Shown here in pieces: positions 12,057-32,620 of a stretch of DNA of 60,658 bases; within the stretch, counting starts at the first letter, position 1; each line of letters starts with the position of its first letter. The stretch is from a bacterium (GTDB taxonomy: Bacteria; Patescibacteriota; Patescibacteriia; 2-12-FULL-60-25), in the NCBI GenBank assembly GCA_035906575.1, contig JAMIEW010000040.1, positions 1 through 60,658 on the forward strand. The letters are read 5' to 3'. The notes beneath the pieces were generated by a model that was given only the letters and a program-made list of their open reading frames with translations, ran no database searches and was not told where the DNA came from. The position numbers were made by a program, and so were the translations under genes.

Positions 12057-13136
12057 TTAACCTCTGAGCCTCGCAACGCGCTGGGATGATTCTAAACTCT
12101 CGGCTATACGTTTACCTTGAGCATCCAGAATAGGGTGTTTTTCTTCTGCCTCCCATGCAACCGGTAACGTGATTTTAAGGATTCTTGCAACTTCTGCCTT
12201 TAGAGAGTTTTCTGCCGTGTCACTCAATCTTTGCAATTCATTTAACAAATCTCCTCGCTTCATACCGACAACATGCTCTTTCATAAATTGCGCACCACGA
12301 TCAAGTGTTAACGACTTGGTTAACAGACGTGCGTGCAATTCTAACTCCCAAGACTGTTGGTGAGCGATGATTGCTGCCATGCGTTTAAGTAATTGATCAC
12401 CCTCTGCCGCCGTTGTCCTGCTATCTACATAACGCTCCATAAGCTCTCCTGGCATATACACCGAAGTATTTATCACAGGTATCTTGCCTTCTTTTGGTAA
12501 ATCGTAGGTAGAACCTGGCTCGTCGGATTCAACATCATACCAGTAGGCATTTGCGATATCACCTGATGCCGTTCTCTGAAGGCCGCGCGCAAGCTTATAG
12601 GCGTGTTCGACCGGATCAAGCGTTCCATCCACCACCACTAATGCGCCTTCACGTTCATTCTCTTGATCAAGATAGAGTAATAAACTATCGGCACCAATGG
12701 TTTTATCGTCGATATCACAGGGATCGAATGGTACGACGTCCCCATTTGCCACGTCATAGCGCCCCTTTAAGGCACCGTCCGTTGCATACGCTTCAAGAAT
12801 GACATATTCAAGATAGCCAGACGCTTCGTGCTTATTACCAGCCGAATGCTCGATTTTTTTTCTATGATAGAGCTGGCGATCATCTTCACTGATCGTTATA
12901 CGGCCACCATTCTCTGAAGGCTTCCAGGCAATTGAACGGTTTTCTCTCCACCAACGAACGATATCCAACTGTTGTTCGCGAGTTGGGATAGGTCGTTCAT
13001 TTTTTGTTTTTGCACCCAAAGTCGTTTGCGGCAATCGCGCAGGCATCTGGGCTGGCCTTCGTTTGATGACTCCTCCCATTGCTGTAGGCATCCCTTCTGG
13101 AGCCATGAGTGGACCTTTTTCGGATGGGTTTTTCAT
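12057..13136 (-). CDS. hypothetical protein
   Basis: 359-aa ORF. No recognisable motif. Confidence 0.65.
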   Translation of the reverse strand: MKNPSEKGPLMAPEGMPTAMGGVIKRRPAQMPARLPQTTLGAKTKNERPIPTREQQLDIVRWWRENRSIAWKPSENGGRITISEDDRQLYHRKKIEHSAGNKHEASGYLEYVILEAYATDGALKGRYDVANGDVVPFDPCDIDDKTIGADSLLLYLDQENEREGALVVVDGTLDPVEHAYKLARGLQRTASGDIANAYWYDVESDEPGSTYDLPKEGKIPVINTSVYMPGELMERYVDSRTTAAEGDQLLKRMAAIIAHQQSWELELHARLLTKSLTLDRGAQFMKEHVVGMKRGDLLNELQRLSDTAENSLKAEVARILKITLPVAWEAEEKHPILDAQGKRIAESLESSQRVARLRG

Positions 13137-15091: not shown

Positions 15092-15607
15092 CTATTTAAT
15101 TTCATCCGTTTTAAATCCAATCTCATTGGTTTTTTCTTTAACCGTAATAACTTCGCGTAAGGCATCAAAAACAATTTTGAAATTTTCATCGAAGCGCTTT
15201 TCTAGATCTTCGAGTTTGTAGTGAAGTTCTTGTTGGCTTAACAAGAATTCACGCGCCCGCACAAAGGCGCGCATAATTTCGATATTCACCTTTACAGCCC
15301 GCTCGCTGCGTAAGACCGATGAGAGCATGGCGATACCTTGTTCGGTGAACAGAATAGTGGCATATCTCCTTCCTCCGTATTGCTTTAAACTTGAGGTCAC
15401 AATTTGTGACCTCAAGTTTTGACGCTCAACTAAGCAAATAAAATCATCTGGGAATCGGTCTTTGTTGCGTTTAACAGCTTGATTGAGCTGTTTTGTTGTA
15501 ACTCCATAAAGATGAGCTAAATCAGCGTCTAACATGACTTTTTTGCCATTGAATTCGTAGATCTTTGAAAGGATTTCCGCCGTAATTGGAGTTAGCTCGT
15601 AATGCAT
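15092..15607 (-). CDS. ORF6N-domain (KilA-N-like) DNA-binding protein
   Basis: LAHLYGVTTKQLNQAVKRNKDRFPDDFICLV is characteristic of ORF6N domains. Contains a 33-nt perfect palindrome at 15387-15419. Confidence 0.8.
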   Translation of the reverse strand: MHYELTPITAEILSKIYEFNGKKVMLDADLAHLYGVTTKQLNQAVKRNKDRFPDDFICLVERQNLRSQIVTSSLKQYGGRRYATILFTEQGIAMLSSVLRSERAVKVNIEIMRAFVRAREFLLSQQELHYKLEDLEKRFDENFKIVFDALREVITVKEKTNEIGFKTDEIK

Positions 15608-15658
15608 ATCTCTACCCCGTTCCATAATTTAAGCCACGATGTCAAGATATTTGTCGTT

Positions 15659-23540: not shown

Positions 23541-23569
23541 TTGACAAAATGACCATTATAAGATATATT
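23541..23569 (+). promoter_or_regulatory. near-consensus sigma70-like promoter (island C, gene 1)
   Basis: TTGACA, 17-nt spacer, TATATT. Confidence 0.6.
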
Positions 23570-23583
23570 GTGTCGGCACATTT

Positions 23584-24243
23584 GTGGCCATTGGCCAGAA
23601 AGCAGGTAGAGTGAATCACTATATCTCGGATGTCTCCTTCAACCGGGTTCTGGAGATGATGAGGAGCTACCCGGCGACCTTCGGAAACCTCATGCAGGAG
23701 ATCAACTGGCTTCGCGAAGACGCCATCATCTTCTGGGTGAATGCTCGCGAGCTCCCCAAGCTGTCGACCCTCGACTTGCTCAAGGGCATCAGCGACGTGG
23801 AGAACTCCCTGGGACAGGCCCAGAGTCTCACCGCGGTCGCCAACGAGGTTCTGACGAGCCCGGTCTGGGAGGACCATCCCTACTACTTCGAGGAGCGCAA
23901 CGAGCTCAGCGAGATGCAGGAAGCGCTCGAGGTGCAGCAGACGCGTCTGCAGTCGACCCTCCGCCGCCTGCTCGACGCCCTCTCGTGGGCCGAGCGATTC
24001 GAGGAGCTCGACCCCACCCACGACCCGCGCATCTGGCGGGCCAAGTGGATCGCCCCGCGGAACCCGCGCAACTGCGACTACAAGGGCTGGCACCGGTTCA
24101 TCCCGGGCAACCACAAGCACAGTCGCGTCGACCGCCTCTACAACGAAGCGAACCACGGCCCCAAGAAGAGCCCGCGGTTCAGCTCGGCGCGCAAGGCCCG
24201 CGAGAACGAGCGCCAGTCGCTCATCGACCAGCTCGCCGCCTAG
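23584..24243 (+). CDS. hypothetical protein (GC-rich island C, gene 1; start uncertain)
   Basis: 219-aa ORF with strong G/C third-position bias in this frame. Alternative starts are GTG 23611 and ATG 23656/23659. The antisense ORF 23512-24156 is judged spurious. Confidence 0.65.
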   Translation: MAIGQKAGRVNHYISDVSFNRVLEMMRSYPATFGNLMQEINWLREDAIIFWVNARELPKLSTLDLLKGISDVENSLGQAQSLTAVANEVLTSPVWEDHPYYFEERNELSEMQEALEVQQTRLQSTLRRLLDALSWAERFEELDPTHDPRIWRAKWIAPRNPRNCDYKGWHRFIPGNHKHSRVDRLYNEANHGPKKSPRFSSARKARENERQSLIDQLAA

Positions 24244-24367: not shown

Positions 24368-24931
24368 GTGTTTACGACGATCGCCACTGGCGAAACGGTC
24401 GGTCAGGTTTCGCGCCTGGCTCAATACAAGAACCTTCAGCTCCGTGGTGAAATCACGGACGATCCGAAACTTCGGATGTTGGGCGAGCTCGCGCTCGTGA
24501 CCGACATCACGAAGAAACTGTTCGCGGCAGGTGGTGCCAGACCACCCCTGGGATTGCTCTACAGCCTCCAGTCCTTCACATCCGAGATGTGTGAGGAGTA
24601 TGAGAACTACGAGCTACCCTGGAAAAACTGGGACGAACTCCGCGAAGATGAGCGCCTGGCTCGAGAGATCCGTTGGGACCTCGAGGCCCTGGAGCCCAAC
24701 TCGTGCAACTGCGCGCGTTGCTGTGGCGTCGACGAGGAGGCGACCCCGCCGCTCAAGGTCTTCACTCCCTCGCAGGAGATGAGGGCCGAAGCGAAGCGGG
24801 AGGCAACGCTCCGCGAAGAGGGCCGCCGGGTGCGTCGCCGAGCAAGTGAGGACGAGGCCGAAGAGCCGACTCCGAAACGAAGCTTGCGCAACCACCGGCG
24901 TGCCAACGCCGAGCTCGAGGCGCTGATCTGA
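24368..24931 (+). CDS. hypothetical protein (island C, gene 2)
   Basis: 187 aa with G/C-rich third positions and a charged Arg/Glu-rich C-terminus. No motif recognised. Confidence 0.6.
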   Translation: MFTTIATGETVGQVSRLAQYKNLQLRGEITDDPKLRMLGELALVTDITKKLFAAGGARPPLGLLYSLQSFTSEMCEEYENYELPWKNWDELREDERLAREIRWDLEALEPNSCNCARCCGVDEEATPPLKVFTPSQEMRAEAKREATLREEGRRVRRRASEDEAEEPTPKRSLRNHRRANAELEALI

Positions 24932-25057: not shown

Positions 25058-25087
25058 CCCCTTCCCACATTTGTGGAAGGGGTTTTT
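25058..25087 (+). terminator. intrinsic terminator (also the left inner IR)
   Basis: CCCCTTCC ... GGAAGGGG stem followed by TTTTT. Confidence 0.6.
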
Positions 25088-25132: not shown

Positions 25133-25492
25133 ATGACATTTACACGTATCTATAACCGTCCTGAATACAAGGACCGAAGAAGAGAGCTCAGAGCAACTAT
25201 GACTGCCGCTGAACGTATGATCTGGGAACGAGTCCGAGGGTCTCAGCTTGGTTGCCGTTTTCGCCGGCAGCATAGCATTGGTGATTATATCGTTGACTTT
25301 TATTGCCCTACCGCAAGACTGGTAGTCGAAATAGACGGCTCAATCCACGAAAGCGAGGGCCAGCAAAATCACGACACGCTTAGAACGCTTTACCTCAAAA
25401 GCGTTGGTCATCATGTTCTGCGTTTCACAAACAAAGAAGTACAAGAAAACGTCGATCGTGTCATACACATCATCAGCAGCTACTGCCCCTAA
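25133..25492 (+). CDS. DUF559 (Vsr/restriction-endonuclease-like fold) domain protein
   Basis: 119 aa. ERMIWERVRGSQLGCRFRRQHSIGDYIVDFYCPTARLVVEIDGSIH...VLRFTNKEV matches the pattern of endonuclease-domain DUF559 proteins. Confidence 0.85.
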   Translation: MTFTRIYNRPEYKDRRRELRATMTAAERMIWERVRGSQLGCRFRRQHSIGDYIVDFYCPTARLVVEIDGSIHESEGQQNHDTLRTLYLKSVGHHVLRFTNKEVQENVDRVIHIISSYCP

Positions 25493-25585
25493 CCCCTTCC
25501 ACAAACGTGGGAAGGGGTCGCCCGACGAAGGCTCTGCGTAGTCGGGCGGGGGTAGGGGGCTTCGATGGGTCGATGTAGCCCATTC

Positions 25586-25733
25586 TTAGCCAATTTGGCT
25601 AAGATTAGTACTTGCTATTATGTCAAAAACGTGCTATACTTGTATGGTAATGAGATGAGCGAAGGAGGCTTATCTCGGGCGTATATTCCATAAATATCGC
25701 TAATGTTAGCCACGTTGGTTAAATAATGGCTAA
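25586..25733. promoter_or_regulatory. cluster of TTAGCC/GGCTAA half-sites (operator- or iteron-like)
   Basis: Perfect palindrome TTAGCCAA-T-TTGGCTAA (25586-25602), GCTAA-TG-TTAGC (25699-25710), TTAGCCACGTTGGTTAA (25706-25722), and TGGCTAA (25727-25733). Confidence 0.4.
25612..25640 (+). promoter_or_regulatory. sigma70-like promoter P1 of island E
   Basis: TTGCTA, 17-nt spacer, TATACT. Confidence 0.5.
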
Positions 25734-25756
25734 GGTTAGAAAAGAAAAGCAATCAC

Positions 25757-25785
25757 TTGACAGTTTAGGTGATTCATGGTAGAGT
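25757..25785 (+). promoter_or_regulatory. sigma70-like promoter P2 of island E
   Basis: TTGACA, 17-nt spacer, TAGAGT. Confidence 0.55.
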
Positions 25786-25791
25786 AATACG

Positions 25792-25938
25792 TCGAGGATG
25801 TAACAACCTTACAACTTAAGAGCTTGTCACGGAGGAGAGCCAAGACAAGCAATGAACGAACTTACCGGCCTTTATGGCTAGGTGTAGCGCTTATTGCTTT
25901 GCTCGGTATCCCGTGACGCTTCATGCGTCATTTTTTGT
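25792..25938 (+). ncRNA. candidate ~145-nt sRNA/leader transcript
   Basis: Bounded by promoter P2 and an intrinsic terminator (TGACGC-ttcat-GCGTCA + T6 at 25914-25936). Internal hairpin CTTGTC..GACAAG. It contains only a 9-codon ORF (25852-25881). Confidence 0.35.
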
Positions 25939-25944
25939 TGTAAT

Positions 25945-26099
25945 GATCGTTTTGGAGGAGGCAAACAGGTGGACGCTGTAGGAATCCGGTTTCGACTGGA
26001 ATCCTTCATCTGAACCCTGTACGGATTCAACCGCTTCGGCGGCCTTGAACCACTTCTCGTTGGATTTTTATCCGATGAGTCGCCGCCTCCGAAACGATC
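25945..26099 (+). promoter_or_regulatory. structured 5' leader domain closed by an 18-bp long-range helix
   Basis: GATCGTTTTGGAGGAGGC (25945-25962) pairs with GCCGCCTCCGAAACGATC (26082-26099), with one U-G wobble and one mismatch. Inside are UUCG-capped hairpins at 25986-25999 and 26031-26042. Confidence 0.45.
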
Positions 26100-26339
26100 G
26101 TTATAGACAAAGACGGGTGGAGAAGAACCTCGCAGGTAGCCGAACACGGTGCGTCTGCGAGCGGTGCGCAAAATCAGCCACGGCGGTTTCGACTGCCAAC
26201 TCTGAAAGTAGCAAGCCACACGCAGGCAATGCCCTCGGGTATTCGCCAGCCTCTTCTTCAACCGTCTTTCTCTATTCGGTGCTACTACCGACACGGCGAA
26301 AGAGCCGAACCTTCAATCTTCAGCAAGCAAGAGGTACAG

Positions 26340-26681
26340 ATGGAAAACATCGTCATCAGCAGTGTTCTCGCGTTCATCATCATCACGATGCTCGCCTGCG
26401 GACCCTCGATTTCCTTCGTATGGCTCGCCTACCGCTTCATGCGATCATTGGCGCTGGTCACACCTGAAGCACTTCCCGAGGCTCGCTCAACGTTGAGGAA
26501 GATAAGGATCGCTAGCTACGGCGGTTTCAGCTGGCTTTTCTTCGCTGCACTCCCACACTTCTACTGGAAGAGCGGCGAGCTCACGCTCACCTTAGCCTAC
26601 TATAGCGTAGGTATTATCACTGCCGCGCTGAACTACGAATATCACCAGCGATCAGAACGCAAGCTGATCACCATCAACTGA
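26340..26681 (+). CDS. small 3-TM membrane protein M1 (paralogue of 28728-29198)
   Basis: 113 aa. AAGAGG SD 5 nt upstream of ATG 26340. Shares LACGP in TM1 and the RSTLRKIRIASYGGFSWLFF and VGIIT blocks with M2. Confidence 0.7.
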   Translation: MENIVISSVLAFIIITMLACGPSISFVWLAYRFMRSLALVTPEALPEARSTLRKIRIASYGGFSWLFFAALPHFYWKSGELTLTLAYYSVGIITAALNYEYHQRSERKLITIN

Positions 26682-26764
26682 ACTCCCTGCGAAGTTGAGA
26701 AGTTCACTCTTCTCCTTCGCTCTCAGAACTCATTCATCAACATTGTTGGTGAATGATGAAGAGA

Positions 26765-26893
26765 TCTCGCTTTCATTCTTTTTCCCGATTTCCTCTCCCC
26801 TTTGATGCGTTGAAGCCGGAGGGTTGAGATCAGGAGAAAAAACGAGAGCGGGATGTGCGATTTTGCACTTTGCAGTCCGCTCACAAAGGTTCA
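26765..26893 (+). promoter_or_regulatory. conserved leader L1 (three-segment switch-like RNA)
   Basis: 5' arm TCTCGCTTTCATTCTTTTT, 3' arm AAAAAACGAGAGCGGGA, small hairpin GTGC-gatttt-GCAC, then TCCGCTC just before the SD. Confidence 0.5.
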
Positions 26894-27262
26894 ATGAAAA
26901 TTAGAAACTTAACGAGTTTCAAGGTGTCCGTAACAGCAGCGGAGCAAGCCCATAACGGGTTTACTCTCTGGCCTGAATGGCCAGTGGTAATCAAACCCAA
27001 GACAAACGGAGACGAGCGTCCACAGAATATTCAACTCAAAGGAGTCGGTATTCATGTGTATGAGCGACCCACCGAATACGAAGTACTGGGACTCCCCGAA
27101 CCTGTGGAAGGTGTCTACTTCCTCGTTGAGGAAGCGGTAGGCGCTTTTCTCAAGGGCACACGAAGTGACGTTTTGATGCCCATAATCGGCCCAGAAACTG
27201 AGGTGCACTGTGACGACGAGGGACTGAAAACCTTCTACGTCAACGCATTTAGGCAAGCCTAG
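26894..27262 (+). CDS. small soluble protein S1, NLT(P)H-motif family (paralogue of 28060-28407)
   Basis: 122 aa. MKIRNLTSFKV N-terminus and the GLPEPVEGVYFLVEEAVGAFLKGTRSDVLMP block are shared with S2. Mid-G+C composition. Confidence 0.75.
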   Translation: MKIRNLTSFKVSVTAAEQAHNGFTLWPEWPVVIKPKTNGDERPQNIQLKGVGIHVYERPTEYEVLGLPEPVEGVYFLVEEAVGAFLKGTRSDVLMPIIGPETEVHCDDEGLKTFYVNAFRQA

Positions 27263-27272
27263 AGACGCCCCT

Positions 27273-27351
27273 GAATCCGACATCGCGAACACTCGTGCTC
27301 TGTCGGACTCCCCTTCTGCTCATGACTTCAAGTCGTGGCCAGATAGGAGTT
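27273..27351 (+). repeat. two-hairpin element R1
   Basis: GAATCCGACATCGCGAACACTCGTGCTCTGTCGGACTCCCCTTCTGCTCATGACTTCAAGTCGTGGCCAGATAGGAG. Stems are CCGACA/TGTCGG, CACGA or GCGAA/TCGTG, and CATGAC/GTCGTG. Confidence 0.7.
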
Positions 27352-27418
27352 CACTCCGAATTCACCTAGTGCGCAACGACGTCTCGCAATTCGCTTGATC
27401 CGTTCGCGCGCTACGGGC

Positions 27419-27870
27419 CGCCGTGACTCTTTCACGGTAACCATCCAACAACGCCAAGAAAGAGGGTATCAACCTTGCCCTATTTCGGCGGGTAACTCCG
27501 CCTCTAGATCGAAAGCGATCGCGTCTCCGTAGCCCGATCTTCAAACCTTCGCATTGGGGCCCGACAGCGCCCTGCACGATCTGAAGATCCACTACGACAA
27601 AGAAAGAGGTAATACGTGCCATGAAGATCTCCCGCGGGTAATGCCCGCGCGCCGAAACAGAGAGCGTAACGCAGCGCTACAGCCACCGACTTGATCGGTT
27701 GTGCCAAGAAGTAGCCGCAGGCAAACGCGTCTCAAATCGCCGTGACTCTATTCACGGTAACCCCGATTGCGAACACATCGCCGACGCTAGCGCGATGTAA
27801 GTAGAATCACCACCTACAAGAAAGAGGTTATACGTATCATGCACTTTTCCCGCAGGTAGCGCCTGCGCAA
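27419..27870 (+). repeat. tandem units of hairpin + SD + 6-codon mini-ORF + stop-in-loop hairpin (Y1-Y3)
   Basis: AAGAAAGAGG SD occurs three times. Mini-ORFs are 27475-27495 (TTG; LPYFGG), 27621-27641 (MKISRG) and 27838-27858 (MHFSRR). Each stop codon sits in the loop of a hairpin whose stem covaries: GGCGG/CCGCC, CGCGGG/CCCGCG, CGCAGG/CCTGCG. Confidence 0.6.
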
Positions 27871-27883
27871 CTTCACACCGACT

Positions 27884-27962
27884 GGATCCGACATCACGAA
27901 CACTCGTGCTCTGTCGGACTCCCCTTCTGCTCATGACCTCGCGTCGTGGCCAGATAGGAGTT
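27884..27962 (+). repeat. two-hairpin element R2
   Basis: Near-identical to R1 and R3. Confidence 0.7.
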
Positions 27963-28059
27963 CTCCCGCTCTCATTTCTCATCCTAACGACAACGTTAGA
28001 AAAAGAAACGAGAGCGGGAATGCACATTGCACAACCACCTGCTCCGAAGGAGATTTCAA
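27963..28059 (+). promoter_or_regulatory. conserved leader L2
   Basis: CTCCCGCTCTCATTTCT...CTAACG-acaa-CGTTAG...AGAAACGAGAGCGGGA, then CCTGCTCC followed by GAAGGAG SD. Confidence 0.55.
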
Positions 28060-28407
28060 GTGACCAAGATCGTTAACCTCACTCCCCACAGCATCACCCT
28101 TCGTGACGTCGACGGCGCGGACCACACGTTCGCCTCCGCCGGTGTCGCTCGTGTCACGAGCACCCCCGGTCAGCGAGAGCTGATCGACGGTGTGCCCGTC
28201 CCCGTCTTCGGGCGGGACACCTTCGGTGAGGTCATCGACCTCCCGGCCCCGGCCGACGGGGTCTTCTACGTCGTGTCCGGCATGGTCGGCGCAGCCCTGA
28301 ACGGCTCGCGCAACGACGTGCTGGTGCCCGGCACCGGTCCGAAGGACAACGCGATCCGCAACGAGGCTGGCCACATCGTGGCCGTGACCTGCCTCAAGCG
28401 GGCCTAA
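28060..28407 (+). CDS. small soluble protein S2, NLTPH-motif family (GC-rich paralogue of S1)
   Basis: 115 aa from GTG 28060, with GAAGGAG SD 7 nt upstream. VTKIVNLTPHSITL, DLPAPADGVFYVVSGMVGAALNGSRNDVLVP. Very G/C-rich third positions. Confidence 0.8.
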   Translation: MTKIVNLTPHSITLRDVDGADHTFASAGVARVTSTPGQRELIDGVPVPVFGRDTFGEVIDLPAPADGVFYVVSGMVGAALNGSRNDVLVPGTGPKDNAIRNEAGHIVAVTCLKRA

Positions 28408-28630
28408 AGCGTCTTCGGACGCAATCACGCTCTACCGGTGTATAGCGTGCACTCTGAATAAATCCACATGCTTCATCGGTAAAACCGGTTGAAGTAAGAA
28501 AGCGTTCTATCGTTCATTAACACTGCGCCACAAGGCGCTCGGGGAAACCCAACTCGAGATGATGTCCTTTCATTCTCGAGTTTCAATTCAGACACCGAAT
28601 CGAAAGATTGGGTAGCTGAAGCGAAATAGT

Positions 28631-28727
28631 TCTCGCTCTCATTTCTCATCCTAACGACAACGTTAGAACAAGAAACGAGAGCGGGACGTGCGATTTTGCA
28701 CCTTACAGCCCGCTCCATGGAGTTCCC
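28631..28727 (+). promoter_or_regulatory. conserved leader L3
   Basis: Nearly identical to L2 in the hairpin and to L1 in GTGCGATTTTGCAC. CCCGCTCC abuts the ATGGAG SD. Confidence 0.55.
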
Positions 28728-29198
28728 ATGGAAGTATACCTATCCAGTCACCCCCTGCTCGCGATCATCTTCTTCGCCGTACTGACCTGCGGACCCATGA
28801 TCGTGCTCGCAATGGTCGCAACCTCTTTCATGAAAGGGGTGCGGGGATCCTTCAAGCGATTGAAGGATATGGCCAACACCCAGAGCCAGATCCTCGTGAA
28901 TATGCGCAAGAACGAAGCAGATGAGATGGACATCGCCAACCAAGAGTTCTACTTCGAAAATGCGGTGTACCAGCGTCACGCAGCGGCTCAGTCGACGCTC
29001 ACGAAGGTGAGGTATCTCAGCTACAGCGCATTCGCTGGCTACTTCTTCGTGACGATGCCGAAGATCTACTTCGACGATGAAGTCGTCGCCGTGATCACGC
29101 GCATGCCCATCTTCGTCTTTTTCATCGTAGGTGTGATCACTAGCGTGATCACGGTCAAACGACTGAACGAGACGTCAGATGCCCTAGCATCCGAATAA
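28728..29198 (+). CDS. small 3-TM membrane protein M2 (paralogue of M1)
   Basis: 156 aa. LTCGP in TM1, QSTLTKVRYLSYSAFAGYFF, VGVITSVI. Confidence 0.75.
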   Translation: MEVYLSSHPLLAIIFFAVLTCGPMIVLAMVATSFMKGVRGSFKRLKDMANTQSQILVNMRKNEADEMDIANQEFYFENAVYQRHAAAQSTLTKVRYLSYSAFAGYFFVTMPKIYFDDEVVAVITRMPIFVFFIVGVITSVITVKRLNETSDALASE

Positions 29199-29209
29199 CG
29201 TGACCAACT

Positions 29210-29287
29210 GGATCCGACATCACGTACCTCGTGCTCTGTCGGACTCCCATTCTGATCATGACTTCAAGTCGTGGCCAGATAGGAGAT
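29210..29287 (+). repeat. two-hairpin element R3
   Basis: GGATCCGACATCACGTACCTCGTGCTCTGTCGGACTCCCATTCTGATCATGACTTCAAGTCGTGGCCAGATAGGAG. Confidence 0.7.
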
Positions 29288-29376
29288 CTCGCTCTCATTT
29301 CTTCTACCGAACATCGGTGCAAGAAACGAGAGCGGGATAAGCAGTTTTTGCCCAACCACCCGCTCCGGAGCTGACA
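29287..29376 (+). promoter_or_regulatory. conserved leader L4
   Basis: TCTCGCTCTCATTTCT...ACCGA-acat-TCGGT...AGAAACGAGAGCGGGA, GCA-gtttt-TGC, and CCCGCTCC directly fused to the GGAG SD. Confidence 0.55.
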
Positions 29377-29586
29377 ATGGAAACATCCATGACACGGTCC
29401 GAGGCACGCAATGTGCTCGCGGCCTACATGAACGCGGGTGCCCGGCACCCCCTCTTCGCAGAAGCGTGTGGCATGTGCCGCACGACTCCTGAGGCGGTCG
29501 AATCCGCGCGCAATAGCGTGCGAGGTATCGAGCGCAAGTTCAAGGGAGTGATCCTCACCCCCTCGGGCGGGCGTCGTCGCGGCTAG
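29377..29586 (+). CDS. hypothetical 69-aa protein
   Basis: GGAG SD 6 nt upstream. Preceded by L4 and followed by R4. Confidence 0.6.
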   Translation: METSMTRSEARNVLAAYMNAGARHPLFAEACGMCRTTPEAVESARNSVRGIERKFKGVILTPSGGRRRG

Positions 29587-29609
29587 CGACTTCGCACACA
29601 ATATCAATC

Positions 29610-29688
29610 TGGACCCGACACCACGAATGCTCGTGCTCTCTCGGGATCCTACTCTTGGCCATGACGTGTTGTCGTAGCCAAGACCAGG
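29610..29688 (+). repeat. two-hairpin element R4 (diverged, compensatory changes)
   Basis: GGACCCGACACCACGAATGCTCGTGCTCTCTCGGGATCCTACTCTTGGCCATGACGTGTTGTCGTAGCCAAGACCAGG. Stems are now CCCGA/TCGGG and TCTTGGC/GCCAAGA. Confidence 0.6.
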
Positions 29689-29716
29689 AAACGTTTTTCA
29701 AAAAAAGAGGTGTGCT

Positions 29717-29797
29717 CATGGGTGAAATTATCATCGCCATCATCATTTTCTATCTCCTTTCGGAGTAGATTTGAACGCAACAAAGAGGACAAAGTGA
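29717..29797 (+). CDS. 26-aa hydrophobic micro-protein (MGEIIIAIIIFYLLSGVDLNATKRTK)
   Basis: AAAGAGG SD 7 nt upstream. Its stop TGA overlaps the GTG start of the next ORF (GTGA). Too short to be on the supplied ORF track. Confidence 0.4.
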
Positions 29798-30057
29798 ACA
29801 CTTCAAAGAATAGCATCCAGCGCGGTCGCGAACTCGTCCTCGACGCTGGTCGTCTGGTCGGGCTCGTAGAAAGCGGATTTCCTCAATCGAGGAGTCTTGC
29901 TGACAAGCTGCGTCGAATCGCTATCAAAAGCGATGACGTACACAACTGTGTGCTCGCCTACGCTCATGCGCAAGGTGAACTCACCAAGACCGAACGGTGC
30001 GGTCTGCAGATTCTTCTCACTCACGAGGAGTATGCGCAAATCACCGGTTCAAACTAA
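29794..30057 (+). CDS. hypothetical 87-aa protein
   Basis: GTG start preceded by AAGAGGA SD. Translationally coupled to the micro-ORF. Confidence 0.55.
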   Translation: MNTSKNSIQRGRELVLDAGRLVGLVESGFPQSRSLADKLRRIAIKSDDVHNCVLAYAHAQGELTKTERCGLQILLTHEEYAQITGSN

Positions 30058-30240
30058 TGAACACCTGAGTCGAGGCGAAACAGTCACTCTGATTTCGCTC
30101 CCTCAATTCACTCATGAACACTGTTCGTGAGTGGATAAGGGATGAACATCCACGCAGCTACCAACAAGGAGGTTGGTGGCGCCGCGGGTGTTCAATGCCC
30201 GCAAAAAAACAGGCGAGAGCCTGAGAAAGGGTGGTAGATC

Positions 30241-30969
30241 ATGAGTATCGCCATCGCAATCGTCGTCAGTCTCATGGAACACTACGCGGTGATGATCAGT
30301 CAGAAGCTGATCATCCAACAGATCATCGAGCGCATCGACAAGGTGCGCCGACACGCGCAGGCGCATATCAGTGAGGACCTGTTCGCCCTTCGGGTCGAGC
30401 AGCAGATCCCCGAGACCGAGCTCATCAACGTGCTCGGTCTCGAGAGAAGCCTCGACGAGATCCCGGATTCCAAAATCCGAGGTATCGCAAAGGCGCTCTG
30501 TGGGATCAATCCCTACAAGGTGCGATCGTTGGAAGCTGGTTGTCGCCTGCTCATCGCAGAGCTGCAGCCCGCAAGTAACGAAGAACGAGAAGCGGATGAA
30601 GCCGCCTTTCGAAACAACCTCATGCGCCTCACGACGCGCTACTTGGCTCTGTCACAGAGCGAGCGCACTCAACTATTCGTGACCCTCGAAGGGACGCGAA
30701 CACGCGAGCAAAGTGAGACGCAGATGATCACGGAGCTCGTGAAGCTTCGTGTCGACGCTGAGATCGAGTACGAACGTGTGCTCGACGATCTACGCACTCT
30801 TCAAGCAGAGTGCCGCGTCCCGCAGGAACCCCTGTGTGACCCGCGTCGCCTCTCAGAAGGTGACCTCAAGCTGCACGCCCATCTCTACAGGGATGTCGTG
30901 CGACAACTCAAGAGCCAACTCACCCGTGCTGACAATCGTCGTCACGAACAACTTCAGGAGGCATCATGA
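30241..30969 (+). CDS. hypothetical protein with N-terminal hydrophobic segment and long predicted coiled coil
   Basis: 242 aa, GC-rich. MSIAIAIVVSLMEHYAVMI, then heptad-like charged sequence. Confidence 0.65.
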   Translation: MSIAIAIVVSLMEHYAVMISQKLIIQQIIERIDKVRRHAQAHISEDLFALRVEQQIPETELINVLGLERSLDEIPDSKIRGIAKALCGINPYKVRSLEAGCRLLIAELQPASNEEREADEAAFRNNLMRLTTRYLALSQSERTQLFVTLEGTRTREQSETQMITELVKLRVDAEIEYERVLDDLRTLQAECRVPQEPLCDPRRLSEGDLKLHAHLYRDVVRQLKSQLTRADNRRHEQLQEAS

Positions 30970-32574: not shown

Positions 32575-32620
32575 GCCCGAGGACGATCCAATCTGGATTG
32601 TCCTCGGGTTTTGCGTTTTA
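32575..32620 (+). terminator. intrinsic terminator closing island E
   Basis: CCCGAGGAC...GTCCTCGGG followed by TTTTGCGTTTT. Confidence 0.75.

Follow-up and report, generated by a model that had tools for sequence, protein, structure and literature searches.

The closest described analogue of the elements reported here would be the promoter-early stem-loop (PeSL) of T4-type phages, which occurs in phage genomes, carries its own promoter and terminator and is shuffled by crossovers inside the motif (Arbiol et al. 2010, PMC2839356; Comeau et al. 2014, PMC4122927). In this study we analyse a bacterial stretch of 60,658 nt (contig JAMIEW010000040.1 of assembly GCA_035906575.1, lineage Patescibacteriota; the whole of it is called the window in the following), in which small plus-strand genes stand in an array between two kinds of reiterated, structured non-coding modules. 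The first of them, called L, is a leader which abuts the Shine-Dalgarno (SD) sequence and the start codon of its gene, always in the same orientation, and the second, called R, is a two-hairpin element which starts 7-23 nt downstream of a stop codon.

As with the PeSL, the motif is intergenic and about 100 bp long, forms a stable stem-loop and ends in the SD sequence and start codon of the next gene; the motifs flank small ORFans in a hyperplastic region, relatives differ by insertion, deletion, replacement and crossovers in the motif, and no dedicated recombinase is involved. Unlike the PeSL, L and R have no sigma-70-like promoter and their hairpins are not T-run terminators, so that the cassettes would rely on an upstream promoter. 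Moreover, there are two module types (a 5' one, L, and a 3' one, R) plus the alternatives F and N, the folds appear to be kept by compensatory change and include a three-segment refolding feature, and the array is located on a bacterial chromosome, with rpoB on one side and ftsK on the other, rather than in a phage genome of the T4 type with its hyperplastic region.

Two other phage systems should be compared. In the early genes of phage T7, related hairpins reiterated between the cistrons of a long transcript, which includes anti-defence genes, reportedly serve as RNase III sites, and cleavage is said, after Dunn and Studier, to leave terminal hairpins which stabilise the individual mRNAs. 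For L the cleavage is what we infer, the helix, with its 21-38 pairs, is longer than the T7 sites, and a downstream segment can re-pair with the freed 3' arm. The stoperators and start-associated sequences of mycobacteriophages, which the array recalls as short intergenic motifs reiterated in one orientation near gene starts or stops, are duplex or ribosome-contact motifs of 13-17 bp that form no secondary structure, whereas L and R are folded modules of 80-130 nt with compensatory changes. We found no useful description in the literature of a Saccharibacteria island of this kind.

The comparison rests on about 25 related metagenomic contigs, with the window itself, strains at 94-99% identity (contigs L003, L005, L034, L036 and L041 among them) and one relative at about 80% identity (contigs L032 and L033). 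Throughout these contigs the scaffold of L and R persists, and the intervening genes are replaced, inserted or deleted. We consider it about an even chance (roughly 0.5) that L and R are lineage-specific intercistronic RNA expression modules of one hypervariable operon, which serve at the same time as homology for cassette shuffling. An earlier note on this DNA had already recognised the cassette-like layout of small genes between reiterated structured modules, and this layout stands; it had missed the Crn4b identity of two of the genes, the foreign composition of the open reading frames (ORFs) and the gene turnover between the modules in strains. Since the genes turn over between the same modules, the emphasis shifts from pure RNA regulation to mobile regulatory cassettes.

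Reiterated modules and their folds

Four copies of L and four of R were recovered by repeat finding, alignments, pattern counts against shuffled sequence, folding and two covariance models, at the places where the earlier note had put them (Table 1). Covariance models of the kind it had proposed, run over the window, returned these copies together with one more element, R5. A 16-mer of the L 3' arm, searched with up to three mismatches and counted on both arms, occurs 7 times in the window against 0.71 in shuffles (none of 100 shuffles reached 7), and a 20-mer of R occurs 4 times against 0.02 expected; by these counts the copies of L and R are restricted to 26.7-29.7 kb of the 60.7-kb window. 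The folds of L2-L4 have z-scores of -4.7 to -6.0, that of L1 has -2.5, and those of R1-R4 range from -3.3 to -4.8.

The earlier note could match the modules to no described RNA family, and this agrees with the searches. At the gathering score the Rfam models found only two tRNAs in the window, leaving L and R unmatched, and at E up to 1 over 25400-30300 there was only sub-threshold noise of miRNA-precursor hairpins. The L pattern gave 7 stretches in 185,579 representative genomes, all of them chance matches (four are one and the same conserved sequence), and in IMG/VR it gave two chance matches and the R pattern none. In a metagenome collection the R pattern gave nine stretches, eight of which map to this locus; the ninth, on contig L039, is a chance match in high-GC DNA.

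For the analysis of covariation, 14 distinct copies of L and 16 of R (14 of the latter aligned) were available. In the long hairpin of L, called P1, 90.3% of the cells in the 14 copies are paired, against 41-52% with slid partners, and in seven pairs both partners have changed, as in the lower stem of the relative, where U-A has become C-G and C-G has become U-A. At least five different paired versions of the apical stem exist, and those reported before, CTAACG/CGTTAG in L2 and L3 and ACCGA/TCGGT in L4, hold, as do the insert of about 55 nt in L1 and the CCCGCTC-type segment 5' of the SD sequence. L1 is thus laid out as a long hairpin with the insert at its apex, then TCCGCTC, the SD sequence and the start codon. 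The hairpin has 21-38 predicted pairs in the four window copies and 19-38 across 13 variants; its tip varies in length and sequence, an A.C mismatch is present in 11 of 14 copies, and it has neither a central spacer nor bulged bases. All conserved positions of L are in stems, while the loops and the second hairpin vary freely; this short second hairpin, described before as a common part of the leader, is conserved neither in register nor in sequence. The pattern is suggestive of an L hairpin kept through compensatory changes, although with few independent lineages it is statistically not decisive.

As to R, 19 pairs make up the RNAalifold consensus, and in four of these both sides are changed; the two-hairpin shape is found in all 18 variants folded, R5 included. 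By the boundary of the covariance model R1 starts about 7 nt past the stop codon of the S1 gene. The rebuilding of the R4 stems by compensatory change, proposed from the sequence by the earlier note, is borne out by alignment and folding. R5, which has equivalents in contigs L038 and L041, shows the same two-hairpin fold (-35 kcal/mol) with an almost entirely different sequence. Together with the paired cells of L, the shape of R agrees with the view that structure is kept despite sequence turnover. Between lineages R is 79-81% identical, compared with 52-73% at third codon positions of the neighbouring genes and 15-56% in other spacers. R has an invariant core, CCGACAYCRCG..CTCGTGCTCT.TCGG, and a palindrome CACGA-N4-5-TCGTG, invariant as well, is nested in CCGACA...TGTCGG.

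Table 1. Features of the array and its leader (positions in the window; CM, covariance model; GC3, GC content at third codon positions)
Feature	Positions	Strand	Evidence and remarks
Conserved non-coding leader	25600..26277	+	Promoters, terminator, 14-codon ORF
M1, small membrane ORFan, 113 aa	26340..26681	+	ORF with SD, hydrophobic N-terminus, GC3 0.70
F module, alternative 3' module after M1	26682..26764	+	Hairpin GAGAAG/CTTCTC, partial L 5'-arm copy
L1 leader module	26763..26896	+	CM match 88.2 bits; fold -47 kcal/mol
S1, diverged Crn4b-family paralogue (by alignment)	26894..27262	+	Family alignment; PADLOC Unk_01 E 3.6e-5
R1, two-hairpin 3' module	27269..27358	+	CM match 99.8 bits; fold z = -4.8
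Non-coding block, three copies of a third module	27359..27879	+	Read from sequence; repeat families
R2, two-hairpin module abutting L2	27880..27969	+	CM match 100 bits
L2 leader module	27962..28062	+	CM match 86.2 bits; fold z = -5.2
S2, Crn4b-type ring nuclease homologue	28060..28407	+	NLTPH intact; GC 0.68, GC3 0.87
Structured spacer after S2, in place of R	28408..28628	+	UUCG-loop hairpin right after stop, further hairpins
L3 leader module	28629..28730	+	CM match 105.2 bits; fold z = -6.0
M2, membrane ORFan, 156 aa	28728..29198	+	No homologues beyond own species
R3, two-hairpin module abutting L4	29206..29294	+	CM match 105.3 bits
L4 leader module	29285..29379	+	CM match 87.8 bits
69-aa ORF, GC 0.65	29377..29586	+	Two population alleles, ~75% identity
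R4, diverged two-hairpin module	29607..29697	+	CM match 86.1 bits; stems rebuilt by compensation
87-aa ORF, conserved across lineages, first gene past the variable cassettes	29794..30057	+	Identity to L033 by codon position 0.86, 0.86, 0.52
R5, strongly diverged R-type element, 3' of 87-aa ORF	30067..30150	+	CM 27.6 bits, E 1.7e-6
Canonical intrinsic terminator	32575..32609	+	16 pairs and T-run (scan)

Cassette variation among strains and the genes carried

Differences between strains fall on whole genes between modules. In contigs L034 and L036 the slot that S1 fills between L1 and R1 is taken by a membrane gene, M3, whose leader is L3-like in its 3' part and whose R is 98.6% identical to R3. 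L036 is furthermore without M1, since 26278-26764 is replaced there by 11 nt, a deletion flush with the 5' arm of L1. The second allele of the 69-aa ORF, carried by L003 and L005, diverges exactly after the 3' arm of L4, GAGAGCGGGA, and the divergence fades at the stop codon before R4. In L041 the gene M2 is swapped for an unrelated gene of 134 aa with the left breakpoint inside the 5' arm of L3 and with an F module after the gene, and R4 is separated from the 87-aa gene by an extra cassette, L5-S3-R, of which at least the L5 leader occurs in L003 too. In the relative (L032/L033), where L and R are kept, the first slot is occupied by a 77-aa gene, and in L033 M2 has given way to a gene with 65% GC and a length of 248 aa or more. 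Breakpoints are located within the 5' arm of L, behind its 3' arm, at the third segment and at the 5' edge of R, and no single crossover point was found.

In L041 (10253-10367) S1 is also truncated, a deletion fusing it to the first mini-ORF unit of the block behind R1, and a 19-nt piece of the inner hairpin of R is found in the junction, which is either a product of illegitimate recombination or an assembly artefact.

The genes carried differ in composition from their surroundings: GC3 is 0.70-0.90 in the island ORFs and 0.45-0.51 in housekeeping genes, which argues for a foreign composition, and the GC content of L, R and the other spacers is in the native range of 0.42-0.55. The low-GC flanks fitting the S2 ORF precisely, once taken as a special feature, are less unusual on the 5' side, where the high-GC phage homologues have about 47% GC upstream as well; only the 3' flanks of those homologues are GC-rich.

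By alignment, S1 and S2 can be placed in the Crn4b ring-nuclease family and would be candidate anti-CRISPR enzymes. Crn4 degrades cyclic oligoadenylates, the catalytic Thr and His being T13 and H15 in Crn4a numbering, and Crn4b proteins of phages and plasmids were proposed as anti-CRISPRs (Nat Commun 2025, PMC12830947). S2 matches PADLOC Unk_01 with E 1.9e-17, and against the PDB the profile of its family matches 9r7b (Crn4b; E 3.3e-12), 9sma (E 6e-7) and 9qs9 (E 1.6e-5), with Crn4a matched also. Like the Crn4 proteins of 9r7b and 9sma, S2 keeps the T..H motif, and it aligns end to end with Crn4b. The S2 family comprises at least 258 homologues, the closest of which are in phage-like contigs of 60-64% GC and many in contexts of phage replication modules. 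The catalytic Thr and His are both kept in S2 (NLTPH), whereas the His is lost in S1 (NLTSF), together with PGTGP, and in S3 of L041 (NLTKR, 12570-12899). Unlike the described Crn4 systems, therefore, the locus has members without the catalytic histidine and carries its genes in a hairpin-framed array; S1 and S3 may be binding-only variants such as sponges, or may have a new function. For S1 the only relative found is a near-identical one. The paralogy of S1 and S2 noticed earlier is real (33% identity within one family alignment).

The paralogy of M1 and M2, both lineage-specific, is weak but real as well, with 31% identity over 55 aa and a pairwise E of 4e-8. Three transmembrane segments had been assigned to each of the two; hydrophobic segments are indeed present, and only one or two of them pass a strict hydropathy cut. 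M2 found no homologue outside its own species among 1.84 billion representative proteins or 5.8 billion clusters. PHROGs, PADLOC and Pfam gave no match for M1, M2, the 69-aa ORF, the 87-aa ORF or the island ORFs o242 and o400, and S2 is the only island ORF with a PHROG match. For o400 no relative was found in the PDB, and no phage record matched o242 or o400, the two largest island ORFs tested. Compared with its homologue in L033, the 69-aa ORF has identities of 0.90, 0.90 and 0.73 at the three codon positions. With its Crn4b paralogues and small membrane ORFans the cargo fits a fast-evolving defence or counter-defence locus; no type III CRISPR genes and no genes of cyclic-oligonucleotide-based antiphage signalling systems (CBASS) were seen within the 60-kb window.

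A separate observation concerns contig L027 of another lineage, in which an S2 gene of 85% identity lies between entirely different repeated structured spacers (525-700 and 1143-1300), the homology running from start codon to stop codon. S2, a 70-aa gene and a helicase-like gene are all high-GC there, and the inner stem of the spacer is rebuilt between its copies. The leader before this S2 has TTTTGCAC...CTCC..GGAG in common with the 3' part of L. These spacers may simply reflect fast spacer evolution, and they are also consistent with lineage-specific modules around a shared cargo.

Transcription signals and surroundings of the array

The array is preceded by a non-coding leader of about 650 nt which is better conserved than the genes around it: its column identity to L032 is about 87% (82.5% by blastn over 25621-26273), and the flanking genes differ. 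A promoter and terminator scan placed sigma-70-like promoters at 25612-25640 and 25757-25785 and an intrinsic terminator at 25913-25941, the stem of which changes from GCTTCATGC to GTTATCAAC in L032 with pairing kept; a small RNA or an attenuator, about 145 nt long, is therefore conceivable here. In a 14-codon ORF (25969-26013) the length and an RFRL core are preserved in spite of numerous base changes. Rfam gave no match for 25600-26277. A small RNA acting in trans from this leader would find no complementarity longer than 8 nt in L or R, which is judged to be at chance level. In L032 and L036 the first L lies directly 3' of the leader, and M1 in the window is without an L of its own.

In the whole scan the plus-strand sigma-70-like promoters are only those at 23541, 25612 and 25757, and the T-run terminators are those at 25913 and 32575. 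No sigma-70-like promoter was detected in any L or R or elsewhere in the array, and none of the L and R hairpins is a GC-rich hairpin followed by a T-run, nor does such a terminator follow them. Because promoters and terminators are present elsewhere in the island and absent in and after L and R, the array is probably one transcript, and the terminator at 32575 probably ends the plus-strand transcription unit.

The spacers not occupied by R hold other modules. The F module recurs with 92% identity behind a different gene, T1, in L041 (11986-12090). In the non-coding block between R1 and R2 each copy of the third module has a strong SD sequence, AAGAAAGAGG, and a 6-codon mini-ORF with its stop codon in the loop of a GC hairpin; the mini-ORFs at 27475-27495, 27622-27642 and 27839-27859 read PYFGG after a TTG start, MKISRG and MHFSRR. 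The third unit of L041 keeps the 6-codon frame (MNRSRG) with its hairpin altered by compensatory substitutions. The block also contains two copies of a hairpin CCGTGACTCT(A)TTCACGG. The spacer behind S2 is kept in L041 and is the most variable non-coding part among strains (10% of columns). Between R4 and the 87-aa gene, a hydrophobic mini-ORF of 16 codons, MGEIIIAIIIFYLLSE, was noticed at 29718-29768 with an AAAGAGG SD sequence; the 83-nt segment holding it is absent in L033 and differs strongly among strains.

The window is a segment of a bacterial chromosome, with rpoC and rpoB at 15.7-23.3 kb (minus strand), ftsK at 33.3-35.6 kb, and gyrA, recA, dnaA, dnaN, ruvA, ruvC, tig and two tRNAs also encoded. 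The recA product was found on a 1.10-Mb contig too, which points to a small genome. From their sample labels alone, the contigs bearing the locus look like sewage and wastewater metagenomes. The array is part of an island of 9 kb (23.5-32.6 kb), bounded by rpoB and a RodZ-like gene; the island genes all run on the plus strand, in the opposite direction to their neighbours outside, and hardly any of them has a family assignment.

Several observations concern the rest of this region. Two ORFs in front of the array (23584-24243 and 24368-24931) have a GC content of 62-64% and GC3 of 0.90 and 0.74, each with its own native-looking promoter and T-run terminator; read from the letters only, a promoter-like site at about 24334 and a T-run hairpin at about 24271 lie around the ORF o187. 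In L032 the same promoter and 5'-untranslated region (hairpin GGCCA..GGCC plus SD sequence) precede a different or very distant gene, which implies that ORF turnover on a conserved regulatory scaffold happens outside the L/R array too. A gene for a DUF559 (Vsr-like) endonuclease, together with its promoter, is flanked by two copies of one hairpin (25058-25085 and 25491-25518), CCCCTTCC...GGAAGGGG, and L032 has one hairpin of this type and no DUF559 gene; this is another hairpin-bounded insertion in the island. Finally, a gene of an ORF6N/Rha-type phage regulatory protein (15092-15625, minus strand) adjoins rpoC in an otherwise housekeeping stretch.

Expression, shuffling and the alternative readings

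How would such an operon work? From M1 onward the array would be read from the conserved promoters of the upstream leader and end at the 32575 terminator. On the polycistronic RNA the two hairpins of R would cap the 3' end of the upstream cistron, and the L hairpin of 21-38 bp would be the likely processing site of a double-strand-specific nuclease of the RNase III type; in its predicted folds L has the near-continuous helix of about two or more turns which is needed for an RNase III site. Once the 5' arm is cut off, the L 3' arm GAGAGCGGG would refold onto the downstream CCCGCUC and give a stem-loop at the new 5' end, which would close just upstream of the SD sequence. L would thus be processing site, 5' cap structure and ribosome-binding site in one, and R a 3' cap structure, so that each small foreign ORF may be given a defined, protected and translatable mRNA. 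At the DNA level the modules of 80-130 bp are the only homology between otherwise unrelated cassettes, and general homologous recombination between copies of L and between copies of R could swap, delete or insert SD-ORF units.

Several points weigh against this reading. An RNase III was not identified in the window. Homologous recombination accounts for shuffling and not for the first precise placing of foreign ORFs between native modules. The core of R is conserved beyond the need of a stabiliser hairpin, which hints at a specific binding partner. The compensatory changes come from few independent lineages, namely one species cluster and one relative at about 80% identity. The earlier note had argued that the U-G wobbles are valid only in plus-strand RNA, an argument that proves weak: on the minus strand the folds of L2 and L3 gain about 10 kcal/mol, so the L hairpin is not clearly strand-specific and could itself have a role at the DNA level, and R prefers the plus strand in 14 of 18 variants by a margin of only about 1 kcal/mol. 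Metagenome assemblers can also mis-join at repeats of 80-130 bp. Pure mis-assembly is argued against, however, by three variant arrangements which recur in independent assemblies (in L034 and L036, in L003 and L005, and, for the L5 leader, in L003 and L041).

The unexplained framing of the foreign ORFs and the invariant core of R leave room for a more novel capture mechanism. One such possibility, which we regard as unlikely, is an integrase-less gene-capture platform, in which foreign ORFs would be installed nearly start-to-stop in L/R slots behind the promoter-bearing leader (about 650 nt) and would pass from strain to strain. Counter-defence proteins such as Crn4b ring nucleases would then form much of the cargo, and the modules, more than passive homology, would be recognised as RNA or single-stranded DNA by a capture mechanism.

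Slightly more unlikely is an integron-like platform, where L, R or both would be recombination sites whose folded hairpin is read by a recombinase that inserts or excises SD-ORF units behind a fixed promoter and leader. The array does resemble integron attC arrays and clusters of attC sites lacking integron-integrases (CALINs): its small cassettes, often of foreign composition, are in one orientation and without recognisable promoters behind a common, conserved promoter-bearing region, and their content varies among strains while the repeats persist. These repeats are species-specific and homogeneous, as in sedentary chromosomal integrons, and the same S2 gene lies between different repeats in L027. 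Moreover, they are imperfect palindromes with variable tips, and the hairpin with its conserved lower stem, A.C mismatch in 11 of 14 copies and variable-length tip may be compared with the variable terminal structure of attC, although the unpaired central spacer and the extrahelical bases of an attC site are absent from it. The earlier note had set attC aside, and no pair of the R''/R' type (RYYYAAC...GTTRRRY, spaced 40-150 nt) was returned by a regular-expression search of both strands over 25500-30300. Pfam found no integrase, transposase or recombinase domain in the ORFs of at least 150 aa of the 60-kb window or in the island ORFs, and thus no IntI nearby; the breakpoints are scattered, in place of a single crossover point; and L, unlike attC, lies 5' of its ORF and holds the SD sequence, that is, the downstream ribosome-binding site.

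The earlier note had proposed a mutually exclusive pairing of three segments in the leader, and its complementarity is real. Complementarity of the third segment to GAGCGGG extends to 97% of cells over the 14 copies; all 14 aligned copies have the same 3' arm, GAGAGCGGGA, and its two potential partners, the 5' arm and the pre-SD segment, vary mostly C/U, keeping G-C or G.U. As the arm is invariant in those copies, covariation is impossible in the pairing of GAGCGGG with the third segment. These facts could also be taken for a cis-acting switch, thermodynamic or ligand-sensing, in which P1 and GAGCGGG/CCCGCUC alternate in the intact transcript, and this we consider very unlikely. In every copy P1 exceeds the alternative in stability by about 20-30 kcal/mol, none of the full-length minimum-energy folds has the third segment paired, and the SD sequence is contained in neither pairing; the stability margin and the position of the SD sequence make a thermodynamic on/off switch unlikely. 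With its conserved nucleotides only in stems, L offers no candidate ligand pocket of conserved unpaired nucleotides, and it has no competing helices of comparable stability, as a riboswitch would. In addition, the diverged L5 copy of L041 alters the arm which is otherwise invariant. When the 5' arm and the apex are removed, however, GAGCGGG and CCCGCUC come to pair around the short hairpin in the minimum-energy folds of all four leaders, and this structure ends just 5' of the SD sequence, so that by these predicted folds processing-dependent refolding seems to fit L better than a thermodynamic switch.

Could R, and perhaps L, be duplex DNA operators for a repressor encoded in the locus, which like stoperators would block read-through between cassettes? 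The palindrome CACGA-N4-5-TCGTG is invariant where structure alone permits change, all copies are intergenic in the same orientation, and the array has small conserved ORFs of 69 and 87 aa. Outside the core, however, substitutions in the stems are compensated and insertions matched, and the fold persists in R5 despite an almost wholly different sequence, which argues for a single-strand fold and not a duplex site; the small ORFs, moreover, showed no DNA-binding domain. We give this explanation little credit. Least credible is that L and R are selfish intergenic elements without a role for the genes they flank, such as miniature inverted-repeat transposable elements (MITEs), repetitive extragenic palindromes (REPs) or bacterial interspersed mosaic elements (BIMEs), because, palindromic, repeated and intergenic as they are, and though a footprint may be seen in the partial copy of the L arm behind M1 (26712-26740), they occur at one locus only in the 60-kb window and in the metagenome stretches with the R pattern (eight of nine, the ninth being chance), have one orientation and fixed positions relative to SD sequence and stop codon, hold in L the functional SD sequence of each gene, and come with no terminal inverted repeats, target duplications, REP-associated tyrosine transposase (RAYT), TnpA or other transposase in the window.

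If L and R are expression modules which double as homology for shuffling, mobile regulatory cassettes, described so far in T4-type phages, would extend to a bacterial chromosome, and there would be a second, integrase-independent route to an integron-like array of exchangeable genes, where structured RNA modules supply foreign ORFs with ready translation and stability signals. The cargo would tie the array to the arms race around cyclic oligoadenylates and offer a natural set of diversified anti-signalling proteins, while the three-segment design of L would provide a testable case of processing-dependent mRNA refolding.

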